DNA of 64,000 nt from an uncultured virus (IMG/VR IMGVR_UViG_3300010224_000009) (taxonomy: Duplodnaviria > Heunggongvirae > Uroviricota > Caudoviricetes). How positions within the stretch are numbered: position 1 is the stretch's first letter; the number at the start of each line of letters is the position of its first letter. The stretch is from IMG/VR virus record IMGVR_UViG_3300010224_000009; one strand, written 5' to 3'. The translations under genes and the position numbers were made by a program. Positions 3,244-26,794 of this stretch are shown here, piece by piece. The notes under the pieces are model-generated. The model did not search any database. It had not been told where the DNA came from and saw only the letters and a program-made list of their open reading frames with translations.

Positions 3244-3759
3244 TTAACGCCGTGCAGTGGCCGCAAGCAAAGTATTAGCGACCCATGGGTGGTCGCGGGT
3301 AATGTACTTCTTGCGCGGCACAAGTATTGTTTGCCCGTTTGGCTGCGGCTCTTCCACCTGTTGCATGTAATAATAAGTATTGTTTGCCTCGTCTATTACT
3401 AGGCTGGCAAACTCTTGCTTTTCTTTGTTTTGCAGTTGCTTGGTTAAGCGCTGCTGGCCGTGCCATGCGTGCCGCAATGCTTCTACCTCTGCCATAGCCA
3501 TTTGGTAGGCCTCTGCAAAGGCCGCTACCCGCGCCCCGTTGGCAGCGTGCAATTCCCTACCAAGGACGGTTAATTTTGTCTTTAACAGTGGCCGCATGTG
3601 GCCATGGTGCTTAACCATGGACGGTATTAATTCGTTAACCTTTTGCGTTAACCGATCGTTAGCCTTAACAACCTCGTCTATATATGATTGCAATATAGCT
3701 AAATCTTTATCGAACTCTGCCTGTGGCTTTTGGGTAAACGGTTCGTAATTAGTGCGCAT
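3244..3759 (-). CDS. coiled-coil hypothetical protein
   Basis: 171-aa ORF with upstream AGGAG on the minus strand. Confidence 0.75.
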   Translation of the reverse strand: MRTNYEPFTQKPQAEFDKDLAILQSYIDEVVKANDRLTQKVNELIPSMVKHHGHMRPLLKTKLTVLGRELHAANGARVAAFAEAYQMAMAEVEALRHAWHGQQRLTKQLQNKEKQEFASLVIDEANNTYYYMQQVEEPQPNGQTILVPRKKYITRDHPWVANTLLAATARR

Positions 3760-4275
3760 TTTAGATATCTCCTGCCGTTACTTGCCTGTTGGTTGTATTG
3801 CGTGGCCCGTGGTTGTGGTAGCCGGTTGCATGGCCAGTTAGCACAATTTTATGTAACTAAGCAAACGATTTTACGCAAATGGTACGCTTTACCGTTTTCC
3901 GAACATTTTTAGTAAAATGCGCACGGGGCGCTGCCGGGTGGCCGTGGGGCGCGGCCCGTGGGCCGAAAGCCATGCCCCAACAGGCAGTTAGCAAAGCGTT
4001 AAGGTCGGAATTAAAGGTTTAATAAAATTGTCGTACGTTCACAATGCCCCTTTTTACTATACTGTGGAGGCAACTATTTTAAATTAATGGTAAGTTTTAT
4101 TTATTAATTAAAATAAGTTAGGTTTAAAGTATAGGGAAACGGCCCTACTTTGTGTGCCGGGTGAACTCTTTAAGCAACAGCTAATATAATAGGCTGCAAG
4201 TTGTCTAAATGTTTAGAGATCGCAGACCGCTTATATTCTGTTTGTGTGGGGCGCAAGCCTAAAGTCGGATCATGG

Positions 4276-4291
4276 TTAACGGGTAGTTAAC
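4276..4291. promoter_or_regulatory. CtrA consensus box
   Basis: TTAA-cgggtag-TTAAC, preceded by the same gatcatgg context as 1782 and 2542. Confidence 0.7.
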
Positions 4292-4674
4292 AGCCGCAGG
4301 CCCCGGCAAGGCCGGTTTCCATCTCGTTAACCTCGGTTATTACATGCGTACATGCGTATATGGAAAATGACCGGGCAAATGGCACGTTGCGCAGGGGCAG
4401 CGCAGCACGTACCTAGCACCAACAACGACCGCGCTAAGCCACCTAGCAGCCCCGCCCACGCGGTCGGCAGGCATGCAAGCTACCACCCTAGCCGCAGCGC
4501 GGCACGCGCGCCACGGGCCAGCTATGGCGGTCGTCCTACCCATGGCAACAGCCCCGACAATGGTTAACGGCCTAAACAGTTTAGTTGCATAACCTGTATT
4601 ATGGAACTTAGATTAAACAGTTTAATTTAACGACCTAAAAGTTTAAATAACCTTTAAAATGTTTAAATGGATGG

Positions 4675-4690
4675 TTAACAAACAGTTAAT
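4675..4690. promoter_or_regulatory. CtrA consensus box
   Basis: TTAA-caaacag-TTAAT. Confidence 0.6.
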
Positions 4691-4947
4691 ACGATCGCTA
4701 AAGTTTTATCTGTTAAAGTTTGTCTAAAATTTAAGCTAAAAACAATCTACTCCTGTCGGCTCTCTAGCTCCGCGCTCCCTCGCGTCTCGGTGTCTGGCAA
4801 ATTCTGCCAAAATTCTTTTCAACGAATGGTTGCGGTTTAAAACCCTGCAACTTGGGGCCACGGGCCGAGAAGAAAATGCCCACATCAGTCACCAGAGAAA
4901 ATTTTACCCCTTGCCAAGCACATAAAATAGCTGCTATTTACCCTCCC

Positions 4948-5640
4948 AGAGCGAAAAGGCAGCCGAGGAAGTCCGGTAAAACGGGCGACGGTCCGATCTC
5001 ACGTATTAGACCATCCGTGAAGGAAGACACACCGATAGCTGCCCTGTCGAGCTAGGATATAAGTCCAAGTACGGTAGCAACCCGAAACGGAGTAGTCATC
5101 TCTCGCTGGGTGACGAATGGTCCAGGGTCAGTGTTGAGCCTTCATCACAAATCGCTGCAACCGCAAGCCGGATAGTGCATTCCTAGCCTTCTAGCTCTTC
5201 CAGTTTAACGAATGCCCCCTCAAGGGCCGCATGTACGATATATTGCGGTCGGCGAGCAGTGGGTAACGGATCGACTTGCTGTTATGGTTGGTCGATCCGT
5301 TCAATTTTGCGGAGCGCCGCGAGCGCTTGTCAACGGGCAACGGTCATCCCCCTTCCGACCCCGACCGTTGGACGCAAGCCGGGATGAGGCGAAGTCACTC
5401 ACCGCTGAACCCGGCACCACTCGTTAGTCTGCCATCGGGCCGCAACACCCTGATGACTAATCCTAATCCGGTTGCAGAGTGCCGGAGGAAGCATGGATGG
5501 AAAGCCTATGGCATAACGAAATCCATGTACTGGGCCAAGTCAGGATGGTCCAGCGCGTCAGAATGAGGCTAATGACAGAAGCCTGACGGAAATATTGTCT
5601 CAGAAAAGGGCATGGTCAGAAATGGCTGTGCCCTTTTCGC
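4948..5640 (+). ncRNA. candidate large structured non-coding RNA (~690 nt)
   Basis: Upstream TTGCCA(4911)..TATTTA(4935); many helices (5265-5275/5291-5301, 5155-5163/5469-5477, 5338-5345/5363-5370, 5491-5498/5521-5528); terminal GAAA-capped hairpin 5603-5638; no credible ORF. Confidence 0.65.
5603..5640 (+). terminator. 16-bp hairpin with GAAA loop, probable terminator or RNA 3' end
   Basis: gaaaagggcatggtca-gaaa-tggctgtgcccttttc (with G-U pairs). Confidence 0.7.
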
Positions 5641-5880
5641 GTTCATAGCCGCCGCAAATTCTGCCATAAATGTTTTCAATAAGCCTAGTTACCCAAAACC
5701 GTTTAACGCTGCTTGTTGCGTGGAATAAAAACACACTATCTAATGCGCAAATTTGCTTGCCATTGAGAGAGCCTTGAGCTAGTTCTGACACTGCCTGCTC
5801 GGGCTTCGTTGGCCGGTCGCCCTCCTCGCTCCAAACGTAACGGTGACCGGCCACTCCATCTCTCGGCACGAGGGACTATC

Positions 5881-6051
5881 GTGCAAGAAGAGAGCATCCT
5901 ACACAAATTCGTGGAGAAATCTGACGAATTGGCCCTGCAAGTCAATGAGCTTGGGGTCATCCTGGACCCGCGCATATACGACGACTGGTTCGTCCTGCTG
6001 AAGAGGGTCAAGGAATGGATGCAAACCTGCGAAAAATCAACGACGGACTAG
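5881..6051 (+). CDS. hypothetical protein
   Basis: GTG at 5881 after GAGGGA. Confidence 0.55.
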   Translation: MQEESILHKFVEKSDELALQVNELGVILDPRIYDDWFVLLKRVKEWMQTCEKSTTD

Positions 6052-6221
6052 ATGAGCTCCTCAAGAAGACGCAGCACATCAATCGGATCATGTTGAAGCA
6101 GGACGACATCATCACGACCTTGCTGCTGAACTTCCGCAAACGGCCAAATCTGGTCAATCCAGACGTTTTCGCTTGGTTTGAGCATGAAGTTGAGCAACTG
6201 AAAGCGCTCAAGTATGAATGA
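6015..6221 (+). CDS. hypothetical protein
   Basis: 68-aa ORF with AAGGA upstream. Confidence 0.6.
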   Translation: MDANLRKINDGLDELLKKTQHINRIMLKQDDIITTLLLNFRKRPNLVNPDVFAWFEHEVEQLKALKYE

Positions 6222-6298
6222 ACGGGCCATGTTCGGCATGCTTTTGCTCGGCACGATCGCCTTTGCGGCGGTAATTTTGATCGGAGGACTGCTTCAAC

Positions 6299-6775
6299 AT
6301 GGCTAAAGTTCGTCCAGAAACCCGCCTGAAACGCTTTGTGAGGGGTAATTATCCCGGATGGAGCGAAGCTTATGAACCCGGCCTGGGGTCAGGGGTCGGC
6401 TATCCTGACATTCAGGTGTTGGGGCCAAGCGGGAAATTGCTCCCGATCGAGCTAAAAATCGGTGTTGTGAAGGCGGGAAGGCTGCATCCGAGCGAAGTTC
6501 GGGGTCCGCAGGTGGTCTGGCACCGCGAATTTGCCCAATCTGGCGGCATTTCAGTGATGCTTATCGGGCTGGAAACCGGCAATGCTTCCGGCAAATTCGA
6601 TCTGTTTTTCGTGCCAGGAATGGACATGATCGACTGGAAAGAGGGATACGAATTCGACAAATTGCACCATATTATGGCTGACGACCCGCTTCTGAGTGAG
6701 AGATTTGTCGGTTTGGTGCAGTATTTCCTCAAGGAAAGCCCTGTCAGCCCCTTGCGCGCTGTGGCGGTCGCATAA
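6299..6775 (+). CDS. PD-(D/E)XK nuclease, VRR-NUC / Holliday-junction resolvase-like
   Basis: GYPDIQV...IELKIG...QVVWHREF..SGG motif. Confidence 0.75.
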   Translation: MAKVRPETRLKRFVRGNYPGWSEAYEPGLGSGVGYPDIQVLGPSGKLLPIELKIGVVKAGRLHPSEVRGPQVVWHREFAQSGGISVMLIGLETGNASGKFDLFFVPGMDMIDWKEGYEFDKLHHIMADDPLLSERFVGLVQYFLKESPVSPLRAVAVA

Positions 6776-6808: not shown

Positions 6809-7450
6809 GTGACCGAGATTACCGCCGAAGACCTGACGATCAAGGACCTGTTCCTCAAGGCCGAGCTTGACAAGGTCGATTACGACCCCGAACTGGCGAC
6901 CATGTTCTGCCAGAACATCATGGAAGGCAACTCCATGATCGAGGCGGCGTGCGGCGTCTATGCTTCCGACGACACTCCCGGCATGTGGGAAAGCGACGAT
7001 CCGGACGAGCAGAAGCAGCTTGATCGGGAATTGCGCAAGCACGGGGCCGCGCTTCTGCGGAAATTTAAGCGCTGGATGGTGCTCAACGACCGCTTCGACC
7101 AGATGGTCAAGCTGGCGCTCCAGCAGCGCTGCTATGCCTACGTCGAAGAGATGGTCGAGATCGCTGACGATGCGACCGACGATGCTGTGATGGGGGCCAC
7201 CGGGCCGACGATCAACGGTCGCGCCATTCGGCGTGCCGAACTGATGATCAACACCCGCAAGTTCGTGGCTTCCAAGCTGCTGCCGAAGGTTTTCGGCGAC
7301 AAGACCCAAATGGAACTGACCGGCGCAGACGGCAAGGACCTCGGTCCGGTTGCGTTCAATATTCAACTTATCCCATCGGGCGCTTTTGTCACGGCAGAAC
7401 AGGCGCTCAAGGAAGCAGAGGAGCGAGACGGCGGTGCTCCAGCCACCTAA
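6809..7450 (+). CDS. terS: terminase small subunit
   Basis: EEMVEIADD...AIRRAELMINTRKFVASKLLPKVFGDK..ELTGADG, typical TerS C-terminal half. Confidence 0.8.
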   Translation: MTEITAEDLTIKDLFLKAELDKVDYDPELATMFCQNIMEGNSMIEAACGVYASDDTPGMWESDDPDEQKQLDRELRKHGAALLRKFKRWMVLNDRFDQMVKLALQQRCYAYVEEMVEIADDATDDAVMGATGPTINGRAIRRAELMINTRKFVASKLLPKVFGDKTQMELTGADGKDLGPVAFNIQLIPSGAFVTAEQALKEAEERDGGAPAT

Positions 7451-7941: not shown

Positions 7942-8425
7942 ATGGACACCTTTCATCTCTGCCAGCCTGCTCGACAAGAGCTTGTCCCCACGAACAATTT
8001 CGTTGCTGCTGGCGGCGGCAATGACGGCGGCTCAACGACCAACATTCCGTTCGAGGTCTCTTCCTCGTTCACGGGCGGTTCCGACGCCGGTGAGNNNNNN
8101 NNNNNNNNNNNNNNNNNNNNNNNNNNNNNNNNNNNNNNNNTCCGACGACGGTGAGGCTGTCTGGACTTATGCCGCAACGCAGAAGTTCACCATTCCGGCC
8201 AACTTTGTCAATTCCCGCGCCGCTGTCGACCCCGATACGTTCAACGGCTCGTTCCGGATCATGCTGAACGGTGTGCAGATCGGCACGGTCAGCTTCGTCA
8301 ATGGCGTCGAGAGCTTCACCGGCGCTGGCGGCACCGTGGTCCCTGACGACGAGTTGCAGTTGGTGGCCAATTCGGCCTACGACTTCACCAGCATGTCGAT
8401 TTCCCTCCGTGGAGTGCGCGCCTGA
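7942..8425 (+). CDS. putative virion/fibre-associated protein spanning an N gap
   Basis: 5' part (7942 frame) and 3' part (ending 8425) joined across Ns 8095-8140, whose flanks are near-identical. Confidence 0.6.
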
Positions 8426-9321: not shown

Positions 9322-10887
9322 ATGGCAACGAAAGTCAACTTCGTCCACATGCTCGGCAACACAGCGCCGTATCTACGGACGCTAAAGTTCACCGACAATG
9401 CGCCTTCGGTGGTCAACCTACCGGCGCAGGCTGGCGGAGTTTTCGATCCTGCCGCCATCGCCATTTCGCCAGACGGCAAGTGGCATCTTTCCGCGATCAA
9501 AACGTCGTCCACGACCCCGCTGCGCTTGTGGATCATGGACGACAACTTCAATTTCGTTGTCGACACGGCGCTGGCTGGTTCGCCGCTACCGCTGGCTGCG
9601 ACTGTCAATGCAATATGCTGGCTGACCAACAATCACATTCTGGTCAGCGATGCAGTCAATGGCCTTTGGGGCGGCGTCGTCGACCGCGTCAATAAGACTA
9701 TTGCCTGGACCCGCATAAACACGGACATTGGCAGCAATATGCTGAGGAATGTCTCTCCGGACGGCAGTTTGGCCTTGTGGGCAGGCAAAACGTCGTCACA
9801 ATATTATCGGTTCATTAAGCGTACCGACGACACCTTCGCTGTTGTTGGTGTGAACAATGGCCCCGGCAACAACGGCCTCGGCGTCAAGATAGAATACAGC
9901 CCGGCTAATTCTACTATCCATGCCGCCCGCACCGGCTCGAACGCCTCCACGTTCTTCAATTATGCTGTTGATGATGCGACGCTCGGTGACGCAACGCCTT
10001 CAATGATCGCAAGCGGCGTCGTCATGGCGGCTAACACCAGTTCCGTTCTTTATGGTCCGGGCAGCGCGGTCACTTACAATGGCACGGTCGCCCGCGTTTC
10101 TCCTGACGGGCTGCATCTGATCTATGGCATTAAGGAAGACGCAGCTTTCTATCTGCGCTCCTACCTGCGGACCTCTCAGGAAGACACATCGCCGGTCATC
10201 TTTGGTCGCAGCGGTTTGATCTCTGCCAACAATCTCCTACCGACCTACATGTCGGACGCGGTGTTCGCCAACAATGACATTCTGCTCATTGCGCCTGCGG
10301 TCAACACTCAAGGCCAAGGTCGCGTGCGCGGTTTTAAGCGCACCGTCGGCAGCCCAGACTTTGAGGAAATTCCTGCAATCGCGGCGTTGTTCAACGACTG
10401 GTCGACGGTTGTCAGCTACTTTGAAGTTTCCAAAGAGTTCGTGCTTGGGACTTCGTCGAAGCTTTACAACGGCGCACCGGCAGCTTTCGTCGGCCGCACT
10501 GCTGACCTGAATAATCTCAAGATCGCGCTGCTCTCGCCCGCCGCCGCCTTCGATCAGACTGACACCAGCCTTGCAGAAGTGCTTGGGGTCAACGAGGTCT
10601 ATGGGTCGTCATGGCCGCAGGGCGGTATCGATGTCGGTGACGGCGGTTATGCCCCGACTGGCAATCCGGACGAGTACGCCTTCACGGCTACCGTGCCGCC
10701 TTTCGACCTTGCCGCCGCTGGCTCGATCACCTTCCGCTATGCAGTGATCTATGACAACAGCGACGCCAACAAGCGCCCGCTGGTATGGATCGACTTTGGA
10801 GAAACCAAGACGGCTTCTCAGTTGGACCGCATGCAGATTGCGTCCGCTAATAGCGCCGTTGCGATCTTCAAGGTTGCTAATCCATAA
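9322..10887 (+). CDS. beta-propeller protein with C-terminal virion-type domain (putative receptor-binding tip)
   Basis: Repeated (I/V)SPDG blades; C-terminus LKIALL..AAAFD.TDT...EV.G..WP.GG...RYAVIY...PLV.IDF shared with 13091. Confidence 0.65.
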   Translation: MATKVNFVHMLGNTAPYLRTLKFTDNAPSVVNLPAQAGGVFDPAAIAISPDGKWHLSAIKTSSTTPLRLWIMDDNFNFVVDTALAGSPLPLAATVNAICWLTNNHILVSDAVNGLWGGVVDRVNKTIAWTRINTDIGSNMLRNVSPDGSLALWAGKTSSQYYRFIKRTDDTFAVVGVNNGPGNNGLGVKIEYSPANSTIHAARTGSNASTFFNYAVDDATLGDATPSMIASGVVMAANTSSVLYGPGSAVTYNGTVARVSPDGLHLIYGIKEDAAFYLRSYLRTSQEDTSPVIFGRSGLISANNLLPTYMSDAVFANNDILLIAPAVNTQGQGRVRGFKRTVGSPDFEEIPAIAALFNDWSTVVSYFEVSKEFVLGTSSKLYNGAPAAFVGRTADLNNLKIALLSPAAAFDQTDTSLAEVLGVNEVYGSSWPQGGIDVGDGGYAPTGNPDEYAFTATVPPFDLAAAGSITFRYAVIYDNSDANKRPLVWIDFGETKTASQLDRMQIASANSAVAIFKVANP

Positions 10888-18460: not shown

Positions 18461-18682
18461 ATGCAAGAAGAGAAGTACGACGNNNNNNNNNNGCGCACGG
18501 CGCAAGCTATTGCGGAAGCAGATACAAAGATTGGTCGCGCCCTTGGCATACGACCCGAAGCAGACCTGAACCGAAAGCAGCTTCGCCAGCAGCGCGCGAA
18601 AATGCGCCCGTTCAAACGCAAGCTGGAAAAGCTCAAGCAGGAACAGGCTCGTATTCAGGCGAAGATCGATGCCGCTACGTGA
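18461..18682 (+). CDS. basic coiled-coil protein (spans N gap; start uncertain)
   Basis: ORF track; Ns at 18483-18492. Confidence 0.45.
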   Translation: MQEEKYDXXXXRTAQAIAEADTKIGRALGIRPEADLNRKQLRQQRAKMRPFKRKLEKLKQEQARIQAKIDAAT

Positions 18683-19113: not shown

Positions 19114-20316
19114 ATGCCTGCGGTTCAAAACGTCCAAATCGGAGAGGCGTTCGGGCCGCTGTTTCAGCCTTATCGATATAAGGCTCTCTTTGGCGGTCGA
19201 GGCAACGGTAAATCTATCGGTATCTCGACCGCACTGGCCATGATCGCGCACGGCTCCAAGAAGCGTATTGTGTGCGGTCGTCAGTTCCAGAACTCGATCC
19301 GGGATAGCTCCAAGTCCACGATCGAAAACCGCATTGAAGCCTTGGGGCTCCAGCGCGAGTTCAACGTTACGCACAACGAGATCGTCCATCGGCGCAACGG
19401 CAGTCGCTTCACCTTCGTCGGTTTGGAGCGCAATAAGGACAGTATCAAGTCGCTCGACGACGTAGATATTTTCTGGATTGAAGAAGCCAGAAACATGTCT
19501 AACGAGAGCTTGGAAATCCTTATCCCGACCATTCGTAAGCCGGGGTCTGAAATCTGGGCCTCCTGGAACCCGGTGTTCCCTGACGATCCAATTGATGCCT
19601 TCTTCCGTGGCTCCCATCCGCCACGCAACGCCTACATTCGCAAAGTCAACATCAGCGACAATCCTTGGTTCTACGCTTCGCCGATGGCGCTCGAAATGGA
19701 GCGCATGAAGCAGGCCAACTATCAGAGATATAAGCATGTTTGGCTTGGTGAATACGACGAGCTTGATGATAGCCGCATCTTCACGAATTGGTCCGTGGGC
19801 AGAATGCCGATTAGCGACCGCGATCGTCCTTATTTCGGTCTCGACTTTGGTTTTAGCGGCGACCCGTCGGCGCTGATGAAGCTTTACGTCTTCGAGAAGT
19901 TGAAGACGATTTATATCTCTCAGGAAATGTACGGGCGCTTTACGCTGACTGAATTGCCTGAGATGATGAATACAGTTGACGAGGTCCGCAAGTACCCGAT
20001 CGTTGCGGACAACTCCCGCCCGGAAGACATTCATTTCTTGCGCACAAAGGGCTTCAACTGTGTTGCATCTAAAAAGGGTGCTGGTAGTATCAGAACCGGT
20101 ATTAACTGGCTTCTCGGCTACAAGATAGTTATTGCGCCCGAATGCGTCAACATGCAGAATGAGGCGCGGCTGTATAGCTGGCAGACAGACAAGCTGACGG
20201 GCAAGGTTCTGCCGGTAACATGTGATGCTGACAACCATGGTTGGGATGCCGTTCGCTACGCGACGGAAGAATGCCGTTCAAAGGTGAAGACCGTCGTGAA
20301 AAGGTTCAAGTTCTAA
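19114..20316 (+). CDS. terL: terminase large subunit (PBSX-type)
   Basis: GGRGNGKS Walker A, WIEEA Walker B, GLDFGF and DNHGWDAVRY nuclease motifs. Confidence 0.97.
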   Translation: MPAVQNVQIGEAFGPLFQPYRYKALFGGRGNGKSIGISTALAMIAHGSKKRIVCGRQFQNSIRDSSKSTIENRIEALGLQREFNVTHNEIVHRRNGSRFTFVGLERNKDSIKSLDDVDIFWIEEARNMSNESLEILIPTIRKPGSEIWASWNPVFPDDPIDAFFRGSHPPRNAYIRKVNISDNPWFYASPMALEMERMKQANYQRYKHVWLGEYDELDDSRIFTNWSVGRMPISDRDRPYFGLDFGFSGDPSALMKLYVFEKLKTIYISQEMYGRFTLTELPEMMNTVDEVRKYPIVADNSRPEDIHFLRTKGFNCVASKKGAGSIRTGINWLLGYKIVIAPECVNMQNEARLYSWQTDKLTGKVLPVTCDADNHGWDAVRYATEECRSKVKTVVKRFKF

Positions 20317-24268: not shown

Positions 24269-24697
24269 ATGCGGCGGGTTCTCGCCGAGACAAACGTGGT
24301 GCGGGCCGGTGATCTGGTCCGCATCTCTCTTAGACTACCAAAGTCTGAACACTTGGGGCGCATCACAATCTGGTCTCGGCAAAATGACGATGATTTCAGC
24401 CCCTACATTGACGAAAGGCAGATCGAGGCAGCGACAAGCTCCGATAAGCCAATAATGCTCAAGCCTATGGAATTTCGTCTCACAGAAAGACGTCGGCACG
24501 TATCTTCTGAGTTCTATTCTGAGACGACGCAGCAGTTCCGAATNNNNNNNNNNCAAGAAATAGACAGCCATTCGGACCCCAAAGTCAAAGCGAGGATCAG
24601 AAGATATGGAAAAACTTCAACGGCGTTCAGACGGAGTTGCCGAAACGCTTTCCGGACAATTCGCGATTTTGCCCACGCGCATTTCTGGCAAGGATGA
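24269..24697 (+). CDS. hypothetical protein (spans N gap; end uncertain)
   Basis: ORF track; Ns at 24544-24553. Confidence 0.45.
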   Translation: MRRVLAETNVVRAGDLVRISLRLPKSEHLGRITIWSRQNDDDFSPYIDERQIEAATSSDKPIMLKPMEFRLTERRRHVSSEFYSETTQQFRXXXXQEIDSHSDPKVKARIRRYGKTSTAFRRSCRNAFRTIRDFAHAHFWQG

Positions 24698-25405: not shown

Positions 25406-26122
25406 ATGAACGTTTTCACTGCCGATCCACGCGATGCTTTTCTCAGCAATACCGGCTGCAATACCTGCTGCTGCGCGTCGGCGGTCGCTCGCCCCGGCGA
25501 AACCAACAAGTTCATGATTAATTATGCCGCTTGGGGCCTTCCGCTTGGGGGTCGCGGCCTGACAGATCGTGTGGAATTTTCCGTAGAGCGTCGTGAACAG
25601 TCCCCGGACAGCCGCGCTCCGGTCAATCCGAACAAGTATTTCCCGGCTGTTTTCAACACGCCACTCGCCGACACCGTTGCGACCGGCGCTTCCGACCCGC
25701 TGGATGGCACGCTGACCTATAAGTTGGATCAGCTTAACGGGCCAGAGCGCGGCGAAGTGGTGCTCAATGAAGACGGCTCGTTCACCTACACCCCGACGCT
25801 CGGCTTCACAGGATATGACATTTTCTTCATTGTCACTTCCAATGAGGCTAAATCGGTAACAAGTCAGGTTATCGTTGGCGTTGCAGCGCAGGCCGCAGAG
25901 GACCCGTTGCCCGCCAAGGCATTTGAAAAGCCGCTGGCAGTGTTGCAGAAGTCGGTAGTTGTGGACAAGCAGAACTTCCTGCTTTCGTTCGCGCTCAAGG
26001 CTTCCCCGCTGGCAGTCGTCGGAGACATTTACCGTGTGACGATCAAGCAGCCCGCCATGGACTGCAACTGCATCGAATACACCCATATTTCATGCTACGA
26101 CGTCAACGTCGTAGGGTGCTAA
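25406..26122 (+). CDS. collar protein with Ig-like/cadherin-like domain
   Basis: CNTCCC N-terminus; GP..G.V.LN.DGSFTYTP..GFTG.D.F; HISCYD C-terminus. Confidence 0.75.
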   Translation: MNVFTADPRDAFLSNTGCNTCCCASAVARPGETNKFMINYAAWGLPLGGRGLTDRVEFSVERREQSPDSRAPVNPNKYFPAVFNTPLADTVATGASDPLDGTLTYKLDQLNGPERGEVVLNEDGSFTYTPTLGFTGYDIFFIVTSNEAKSVTSQVIVGVAAQAAEDPLPAKAFEKPLAVLQKSVVVDKQNFLLSFALKASPLAVVGDIYRVTIKQPAMDCNCIEYTHISCYDVNVVGC

Positions 26123-26131
26123 GGAAATACC

Positions 26132-26794
26132 ATGTCTGCGACGGGCACCCCCGAAATTGTGTCCCGGATCAGGTTCCAGCCGGAAGAAGTTCTGCCGCTG
26201 CAACTGGTCCGGGAACATACCAAGACGGACGACACCCCGACCGTCACTGACGCAGTTCTCGAGCTCTATCGCGAAGTGGCTTTCGAGCAGGCTGAACTTT
26301 ACACTGGTCGCATCATACTTGGCTCGGCCTCCGTCCAGGAGACCTTTCGCATTGATGTAACCGACGAGTACAACAAGCGCCGCCGCCCGAACCCATACCG
26401 CAAGCTTATCCTGTCGTATGCACCGATGGAAAAGTTTGTGCTCGTTGGGGGCAAGAGCCGCCAGAATATCCGCACAAGGCCAAACAGCCGCGAGCTCGAG
26501 ATCGCTCACGACCAGTTCAATCTTGACATGGGCAATTGCTGCGCTGGTAACGGCCTCAGCATAGAGCAGTTCGTGCTCTATTCCACGGGCTACAAGAGCA
26601 AGGAAGATATTCCTTCCACCATGCTCTATGGCTGCTTGAAGTTCATCGCGTGGTCGATCAATAATCCCGGCGACGAATTGCTGACCGTTCGCAACCGTCT
26701 AGGCACGACCGAAACGGGTCTTATCGGCACCAACAATGCCGCTTGGGGATCAGGCGCGATTGAGCACTGGAAGCCGTATAAGGTCAAACGATGA
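26132..26794 (+). CDS. head-tail adaptor (neck 1)
   Basis: LVREHTK.DD...D..L..Y...AFE.AE.YTGR, gp6/gp15-like. Confidence 0.8.
   Translation: MSATGTPEIVSRIRFQPEEVLPLQLVREHTKTDDTPTVTDAVLELYREVAFEQAELYTGRIILGSASVQETFRIDVTDEYNKRRRPNPYRKLILSYAPMEKFVLVGGKSRQNIRTRPNSRELEIAHDQFNLDMGNCCAGNGLSIEQFVLYSTGYKSKEDIPSTMLYGCLKFIAWSINNPGDELLTVRNRLGTTETGLIGTNNAAWGSGAIEHWKPYKVKR

Follow-up and report, generated by a model that had tools for sequence, protein, structure and literature searches.

A candidate lineage-specific non-coding transcription unit upstream of the small terminase gene of an uncultured phage

What does a phage keep in almost seven hundred nucleotides that encode no protein? The question is raised by positions 4948–5640 of the 64-kb stretch of viral DNA analysed here, which we refer to as the window and which is a rotated copy of a circularly assembled, complete 74.6-kb virus record (G001; 100% identical), with window bases 2038–2117 present at both ends of that record. 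A sequence-only reading of the window had proposed that 4948–5640 specifies a highly structured phage non-coding RNA with a promoter-like element and a terminal hairpin of its own, possibly of a new family. We find that the stretch is non-coding and that it lies between flanks that are conserved in related phages. The explanation that we tentatively favour, with a confidence just short of an even balance, is that it constitutes a lineage-specific non-coding transcription unit in a variable RNA slot of a phage clade; its transcription, its function and its mode of action are what we infer.

Coding capacity was assessed from codon usage, as a log-odds score for which 22 long genes of the window served as the training set. 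Between about 3751 and 5776 the score was below zero in each of the six frames, and from 5851 on it was positive. The longest run of the window without a positive score is 3421–5940 (2520 nt), and the second longest measures 540 nt, so the earlier description of the longest gene-free stretch even understated the case. The two plus-strand open reading frames (ORFs) of 71 and 96 amino acids (aa) scored -0.36 and -0.21, as against +0.17 to +0.52 for the genuine neighbouring genes, and a search of 5.8 billion proteins returned no homologue of either. When 1.84 billion representatives were searched exhaustively with HMMER, there was a single match to a candidate ORF, a 25-residue similarity recurring six times in an 1839-aa repeat protein, which was judged to be an artefact. 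A search of PHROGs with 13 ORFs of the surroundings matched none of the five ORFs within 4852–5566, and no GGAG-like ribosome-binding site was seen before the ATG at 5212. Because the coding scores are negative, the ORFs lack homologues and the PHROGs search was null, the stretch 4948–5640 is non-coding. The composition of its body is normal (55% GC), and the AT-rich, repeat-rich part of the region lies upstream, at 4000–4740.

The stretch was compared with three full-length sister genomes and one fragment, namely a 75.3-kb virus record (L019), a 75.9-kb virus record (L020), a 76.1-kb contig that had been binned with a Saccharibacteria metagenome-assembled genome (L047) and a 6.9-kb fragment (L040). 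By their small terminase (TerS), the window, L019 and the pair formed by L020 and L047 stand at roughly the same distance from one another (48–49% identity), and L020 and L047 are 82% identical. The elements on which the argument rests are the following:

4714–4857, plus strand: conserved element B, non-coding, about 140 nt, present in the window and in all three sister genomes, with the core ATCTACTCC...CGTCTC.
4797–4822, plus strand: copy 1 of a 26-nt direct repeat (family D2), in the tail of element B; 23 of 26 positions identical to copy 2.
4911–4940, plus strand: promoter-like site TTGCCA-N18-TATTTA, with TG two bases before the second hexamer; it contains AAAATA-N5-TATTTA.
4948–5602, plus strand: candidate RNA body (X), about 655 nt, with no Rfam, DNA or sister-locus match and no coding signal.
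5603–5645, plus strand: terminator-like hairpin (T1) of 16 bp (5603–5638) with a GAAA loop, three G-U pairs and a GC-rich core, followed by TTTTCGCGTT.
5654–5679, plus strand: copy 2 of the 26-nt repeat, just after the terminator; together with about 45 nt downstream it forms a diverged duplicate of the tail of element B.

At the upstream end, the two promoter-like hexamers that had been read by eye are indeed present (TTGCCA at 4911–4916 and TATTTA at 4935–4940), separated by an 18-nt spacer. Compared with the sigma-70 consensus TTGACA/TATAAT, whose hexamers stand 16–18 nt apart, they agree at five of six and three of six positions (8/12 in all). The combination AAAATA-N5-TATTTA occurs once in the window when up to one mismatch is allowed (0.16 occurrences expected), and it is found again before a long RNA of the sister phages, where L019 has it unchanged and L020 and L047 each depart from it at one position. 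The promoter of this long RNA reads TTGCC(T/C)-N16-TA(G/T)TT(T/A), with AAAATA five bases before the second hexamer. At the downstream end, the terminal 16-bp GAAA hairpin is likewise present as described, and its local folding z score (150-nt window 5501–5650) is -4.2 on the plus strand versus -1.7 on the minus strand. T1 and about 25 nt downstream of it align with the terminator behind a small YrlA-like RNA of L047 and L020, in which the hairpin is followed by TTTTGCGTTT. Since the G-U pairs of T1 become C-A mismatches on the other strand, the hairpin is a plus-strand RNA signal, and by its sequence it is predicted to act in rightward transcription. The layout of a plus-strand transcription unit is thus supported by a promoter type common to the sister phages and by a terminator that aligns with that of their small RNA.

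The two flanks also define a slot. Element B is 76.6% identical over 141 nt to L047 and 73.8% identical over 145 nt to L020 by blastn, a four-way alignment was made, and a pattern scan of IMG/VR with its core returned no records besides the two sisters already known; a role in packaging or regulation is possible. In L047 and L020, element B is followed by an RNA of about 250 nt that ends in the terminator. Because the conserved flanks (element B and the terminator) are the same, the candidate lies in the same slot as the small RNA of the sisters. The content of the slot is about 655 nt in the window versus about 250 nt in L047 and L020, and the two have nothing in common. The 26-nt repeat is present in two copies in the window and in one copy each in L047 and L020, and a scan of IMG/VR with an 18-nt piece of it gave six loci, all of them short pattern-site matches with no other similarity to 3760–6300. 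An insertion with target duplication was considered as the origin of the two copies and ruled out; homology to the relatives continues past copy 1, and not past copy 2, which argues for duplication of a regulatory module instead.

A further property of the stretch connects its two ends. The sequence-only reading had described 14 nt at the 5' end as complementary to the 3' arm of the terminal hairpin. Not all of the 14 nt pair, but 4951–4959 is perfectly complementary to 5632–5640, within the 3' arm of T1, over 9 bp. An end-to-end pairing of this length was matched by only 5 of 2000 shuffles and by 7 of 1725 genomic 40-mers, and the complementarity is thus beyond chance. In the sister RNAs, a 9-nt 5' element is complementary to the 5' arm of the terminator, a pairing matched by 7 of 527 and 9 of 528 genomic 60-mers.

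We then turn to the internal structure, where the evidence is mixed. All 13 pairings that had been read by eye exist; the helix 5009–5018/5113–5122 pairs at 9 of 10 positions, and the others are perfect or contain one G-U pair. Most of them are of 7 bp or fewer, however, and are at chance level compared with dinucleotide shuffles. Longer stems are in excess: there are seven perfect stems of at least 8 bp, compared with 2.9 ± 1.6 in 200 dinucleotide shuffles (4 of the 200 reach seven), and three local hairpins of at least 8 bp, compared with 0.43 (2 of the 200 reach three). The stems of at least 8 bp include a long-range 9-bp pairing, 5155–5163/5469–5477, and two hairpins:

5265–5301, plus strand: perfect 11-bp hairpin with a 15-nt loop, then CAATTTTG; the 150-nt window 5201–5350 has z scores of -2.4 (plus strand) and -3.0 (minus strand).
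5338–5370, plus strand: perfect 8-bp hairpin.

A handful of hairpins is real, and the short helices are those expected of any sequence of like length and composition. For the whole stretch, the plus strand folded with z = -3.0 (20 dinucleotide shuffles) or -3.3 (14 shuffles), and the minus strand with z = -1.8. Among 150-nt windows inside the candidate, only 5201–5350, with the 11-bp hairpin, and 5501–5750, with the terminal hairpin, stand out.

Several observations weigh against a functional RNA unit, and the first of them concern folding. Stems of at least 7 bp number 14, compared with 11.0 in the shuffles, 42 of 200 of which reach 14; because there is no excess at this length, the many helices of 5–7 bp are at chance level. 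Twelve evenly spaced control windows of 693 nt gave z scores of 0.26, -2.46, -1.73, -2.83, -6.28, -0.90, 0.77, 0.20, -0.44, -2.90, -3.92 and -0.93, so that two of the 12 lie below the candidate and another three come near it, at -2.5 to -2.9. When folding energy was regressed on GC content, the candidate ranked 28th of 122 windows (z = -0.75), and its minus strand 58th. The minimum-free-energy fold (-262.2 kcal/mol) and the centroid fold (-222.0 kcal/mol) also differ widely. The plus-strand fold therefore beats its shuffles, with z of about -3, but is no better than several controls from the same genome, and the description as highly structured does not stand: the energy is ordinary for this genome. 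Measured by energy clearly below that of comparable native sequence, the candidate falls outside the thermodynamically exceptional RNAs, and an ornate, globally structured RNA is not supported by the folding data. As a side observation, the control window at 26000–26692, in the structural gene block, has z = -6.3 (14 dinucleotide shuffles), far stronger than the candidate.

The remaining points on this side concern the signals and the lack of relatives. A consensus promoter scan omitted 4911–4940, which scores 8/12 and has a second hexamer ending in A, and the same scan listed a stronger promoter-like site on the minus strand within the stretch, at 5333–5304. This site (TTGACA-N18-CAAAAT, 10/12) is the best promoter-like match of the region and points leftward through the 11-bp hairpin. 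A consensus terminator scan omitted 5603–5638, which has 4 T in the first 8 bases where the rule is 5 T in 8. The minimum-free-energy fold forms the terminator hairpin and not the 9-bp end-to-end pairing; because the hairpin wins over the closing pair in this model, a termination switch by end-to-end pairing is possible but not favoured. Finally, L019 keeps a 16-nt island in common with the long RNA of L020, whereas the body X has nothing in common with any of the equidistant sisters, and no homologues of the body were found in the phage, plasmid or sister-locus searches.

These searches were extensive. A cmscan of the whole window with all 4227 families of Rfam 15 gave no match at the gathering score, and when E values up to 10 were allowed on 3600–6400 and on 4860–5700 (841 nt), nothing was found within 4948–5640. 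ARAGORN found no tRNA or tmRNA in the window or in four sister loci. Blastn of 3760–6300 against 50,697 phage records and of 4860–5700 against 72,556 plasmid records gave no match, and in blastn with short words against every related locus retrieved the only matches were to element B and the 26-nt repeat, with none in the body. A role as an antisense regulator was also considered and rejected: compared with the rest of the genome, the 10.7 kb beyond the window included, the stretch showed complementary segments of at most 13 nt. The words GCGTCAGAATG and CATGGTCAG, which the stretch has in common with L019, were rejected as homology; the second lies in a plausible membrane-protein ORF of L019. 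The stretch appears to belong to no described family and to have no known relative, and the modest claim, made from sequence, would be that of an orphan non-coding cassette.

How does the candidate compare with known RNAs? The small RNAs that occupy the slot in L047 and L020 match the YrlA model over its full length but below threshold, at 2004–2109 in L047 (29.9 bits) and 2124–2230 in L020 (23.9 bits), the gathering score being 69. A T-arm, a closed acceptor-like stem and a D-arm can be recognised in these matches, although in permuted order. In a control search with E values up to 10, 13 of 14 control genomes were positive as well, though never above the cut-off, and because control genomes also match below threshold, the family call is weak. 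YrlA is a bacterial Y RNA (RF02553) which, according to Chen et al. 2014 (PMC4201824), is encoded beside the gene for Rsr (Ro60, TROVE domain) and carries a GNCGAA(N0-1)G motif near its 5' end. The slot of L047 contains three GNCGAA(N)G motifs in 281 nt. The candidate resembles these RNAs in position, since L047 and L020 carry the YrlA-like module in this slot between element B and the conserved terminator, and in layout, as a promoter–RNA–terminator cassette with complementarity between the 5' end and the region of the 3' end. It differs in having no YrlA match, even with E values up to 10 over the window and the complete G001 record, and no tRNA-like element, and in being about three times longer. 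The motif occurs in it twice, internally (5112 and 5388) and not near the 5' end, at the background density (0.98 per kb on the plus strand of the window). No TROVE/Rsr gene (PF05731) was found in any of four genomes or records (G001–G004), in a search that was positive in 2 of 14 named control genomes.

Two further comparisons are less close. The promoter-proximal read-through RNAs putL and putR of HK022 have a similar arrangement of promoter, folded RNA, terminator and then co-directional operon, but this is an analogy of layout alone, and the put RNAs are about 70 nt long compared with about 655 nt for the candidate. GOLLD and ROOL, for their part, are associated with phages. They are large ornate RNAs with families of their own in Rfam, and are the subject of a cryo-EM preprint (10.1101/2024.12.08.627333). 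The candidate is like them in being a large (600–800 nt) non-coding stretch in a phage genome, and unlike them in having no covariance-model match and a folding energy that is ordinary for its genome. The suggested likeness to GOLLD and ROOL was thus not upheld, since Rfam gave no match even at E values up to 10.

The long RNA of the sister phages, mentioned above for its promoter, deserves separate description:

L020 3380–3955, L047 3399–4012 and L019 about 3795–4450 (575–655 nt): non-coding RNA of about 600 nt behind the conserved promoter.

In the alignment of L020 and L047 (74% identity), the consensus fold comprises 169 pairs, none of which is broken, and the changes in them are compensatory in 18 cases and one-sided in 19; L019 retains part of the RNA (the 5' domain). 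This RNA is genuinely structured. No Rfam family matches it, and it looks like an undescribed leader RNA. It resembles the candidate in promoter type (TTGCC-N-AAAATA-N5-TA(T/G)TT), in size and in its position upstream of the orf158–terS operon. Sequence, profile and covariance model show no similarity between the two: an nhmmer profile of the sister RNA found nothing in 4700–6000, its best match over the whole window lying elsewhere (E = 0.26), and a covariance model of the 5' domain (R1), built from three sequences and of low power, had its best match in 3700–6300 at 4497–4509, a hairpin of 13 nt that lies outside the stretch (E = 0.42). They also differ in that the sister RNA runs straight into the ribosome-binding site of the next gene, whereas the candidate ends in a terminator. 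In L047, positions 4013–4113 are a 101-base run of N with the same stretch of about 55 nt on both sides, an arrangement that suggests an artefact of assembly or masking.

Of the sister leader, the window seems to have retained no more than about 90 nt as a remnant, at 5790–5880, in the region that follows the candidate:

5757–5785, plus strand: second promoter-like site of the same type, TTGCCA-N17-TAGTTC, which aligns with the sister promoter TTGCCT-N16-TAGTTT.
5810–5853, plus strand: hairpin of the leader, inverted repeat I8 (12 nt, 11/12 complementary); the window 5801–5950 has z = -3.9.
5881–6051, plus strand: first gene past the non-coding stretch, 56 aa, GTG start, ribosome-binding site GAGGGA, coding score +0.20.

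By its sequence, 5757–5785 would be a weaker copy of the promoter type at 4911–4940, placed ahead of the leader of about 90 nt. The start and the end (GAGGGAC-AT-GTG) of this leader resemble both ends of the sister RNA of about 600 nt, so from sequence comparison it looks like a remnant of that RNA, as though the interior had been deleted. The start context GAGGGAC-AT-GTG of the 56-aa gene is also found in L047. The operon downstream runs rightward as orf56–orf68–orf158–terS, and the candidate stretch lies about 1.2 kb upstream of the TerS gene. On the left, the non-coding region is bounded as follows:

3244–3759, leftward: gene of 171 aa, the left flank of the non-coding region.
3760–4713, no strand assigned: ORF-free control region between the leftward 171-aa gene and element B, with no coding score in any frame.

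The control region (about 950 nt) has AT-rich blocks with repeated GTTAA/TTTAAA words (repeats D3–D6) and a C-rich block at 4300–4560. It aligns weakly (58% over 791 nt) with the equivalent position of L019, and it resembles an origin or control region. The sister phages have a region of like size and make-up at the equivalent place. Between element B and orf158 no sister ORF has a convincing homologue in the window; the genes that do are the leftward gene at 3244–3759 and orf158 itself.

As regards the phage as a whole, Pfam places the small terminase at 6809–7450 and the large terminase at 19114–20316, and identifies in the window portal, prohead protease and capsid proteins, Mu-type baseplate proteins, a DnaE-type polymerase and two Pam3-like proteins. 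The TerS and TerL genes are about 12 kb apart, with several large ORFs without a Pfam match between them, for example 9322–10887 (521 aa), and runs of N are found in the window at 8095–8140, 18483–18492 and 24544–24553. Among named phages, the closest in large terminase are two of Synechococcus (50% identity). The HIP1 palindrome, taken as a possible hint to the host, gave no match where 3.07 were expected, which is uninformative. TerS has 28 homologues in the protein collection, among them relatives at 52–67% identity on contigs of 1.1 to 40 kb; searches based on it gave 19, 9 and 2 loci, and only L019, L020, L047 and L040 are close. A search of IMG/VR with orf158 gave no relatives, and one with the 521-aa ORF gave two distant loci. 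L040, a fifth relative in our count, has an orf158 homologue at 1822–2337. Its positions 1–470 hold no convincing ORF and a long hairpin (CCACCCTCA...TGAGGGTGG), and may be the 3' part of another long leader RNA.

The main rival explanation, which we hold to be doubtful, is that the body is a non-functional spacer, left over in a hypervariable region from decayed cargo genes or from recombination between repeated promoter modules and perhaps transcribed incidentally. Each lineage has a different content between element B and orf158, and the 26-nt element with about 45 nt is duplicated on both sides of the body, which suggests rearrangement; the ordinary folding energy and a body without homologue in the searches made would be expected of a spacer too. 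Yet 650 nt of junk would be unusual in a window whose next longest non-coding run is 540 nt, a spacer would not explain why a promoter of conserved type and a conserved terminator enclose the body exactly, nor the pairing of its 5' end with the terminator, and no frame has a residual coding signal. A trace of a decayed gene might be seen in a 30-aa minus-strand frame (4944–5042) that is marginally like a sister protein (47% over 34 aa, E = 0.02), but this match fails correction for the number of queries. When six-frame pieces of 4860–5900 were compared with the loci, one match had E = 0.002 in about 60 queries and E = 0.02 in reverse, and a gene remnant was rejected on the grounds that the match is not significant. 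By contrast, a large ornate RNA of the GOLLD/ROOL kind, perhaps of a new family, as the sequence-only reading had it, is distinctly unlikely in our view. Such an RNA would fit a non-coding stretch of 650–700 nt, the z score of about -3 against dinucleotide shuffles and the excess of stems of at least 8 bp, long-range pairing included, and the sisters' RNA of similar size behind the same promoter type truly covaries. The energy is nonetheless ordinary for the genome, one of the two local regions that stand out in 150-nt windows is the terminator, Rfam has no match at E up to 10, and neither the covariance model (on 3700–6300) nor the nhmmer profile of the sister RNA finds anything in the stretch.

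The stretch might instead work at the level of DNA, as a packaging site, a replication origin or an array of protein-binding sites. Its place about 1.2 kb upstream of the TerS gene, in a non-coding control region of 2.1 kb, would suit such a role, as would the perfect palindromic stems of 11 and 8 bp and the flanking 26-nt element, which may bind protein. We give this reading a slim chance: the body contains no iterons or tandem repeats, those found lying outside it; its composition is normal, the AT-rich, repeat-rich part being upstream; the terminal hairpin needs G-U pairs, which make sense only in RNA; and it is element B, and not the body, that is conserved among the relatives. A very slim one is left for one or more small proteins overlooked by the searches. 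The plus-strand ORFs of 71 and 96 aa would be the candidates, but their coding scores are negative, they lack homologues and no GGAG-like site was seen before ATG 5212.

A plausible course of events for the non-coding transcription unit that we tentatively favour would be as follows. A sigma-70-like, phage-specific type of promoter (4911–4940) would drive synthesis of an RNA of about 655 nt from the plus strand, ending at an intrinsic terminator (5603–5645). The unit would occupy the variable slot between the element B of about 140 nt and the conserved terminator, in which two sisters would carry a tRNA mimic. By analogy with that mimic, the RNA would most likely act by binding a protein, either of the host or of the phage. 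If its 5' end paired with the 3' arm of the terminator, the molecule could be closed, or the extent of read-through into orf56–orf68–orf158–terS could be altered; setting this read-through might be a side role. A more far-reaching proposal, which we consider rather unlikely, is that a clade of cyanophage-like myoviruses of about 75 kb keeps a promoter-to-terminator slot for RNA cargo beside the packaging operon and swaps its content between lineages, with a Y-RNA-like mimic without Rsr in two of them and, here, a new 650-nt RNA with paired ends that would found an undescribed family; the cargo RNAs would then be trans-acting decoys or sponges directed against host proteins of RNA handling or defence.

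The finding has a different meaning under the different readings. If the body is a spacer, it is a caution: a shuffle z score of -3, even together with a dozen eye-read helices, is not enough in this genome to tell a non-coding stretch from ordinary coding sequence. Firmer by-products of the comparison are the covarying RNA of about 600 nt in the sister phages, which is absent from Rfam, and a YrlA-like RNA without Rsr. If the candidate is a functional RNA, on the other hand, phages would be seen to exchange unrelated non-coding RNAs within one conserved expression cassette, and an RNA of 650 nt that takes its place beside a Y-like tRNA mimic without a Ro/Rsr partner would offer leads on how phages manipulate the RNA metabolism or the defence of their hosts.

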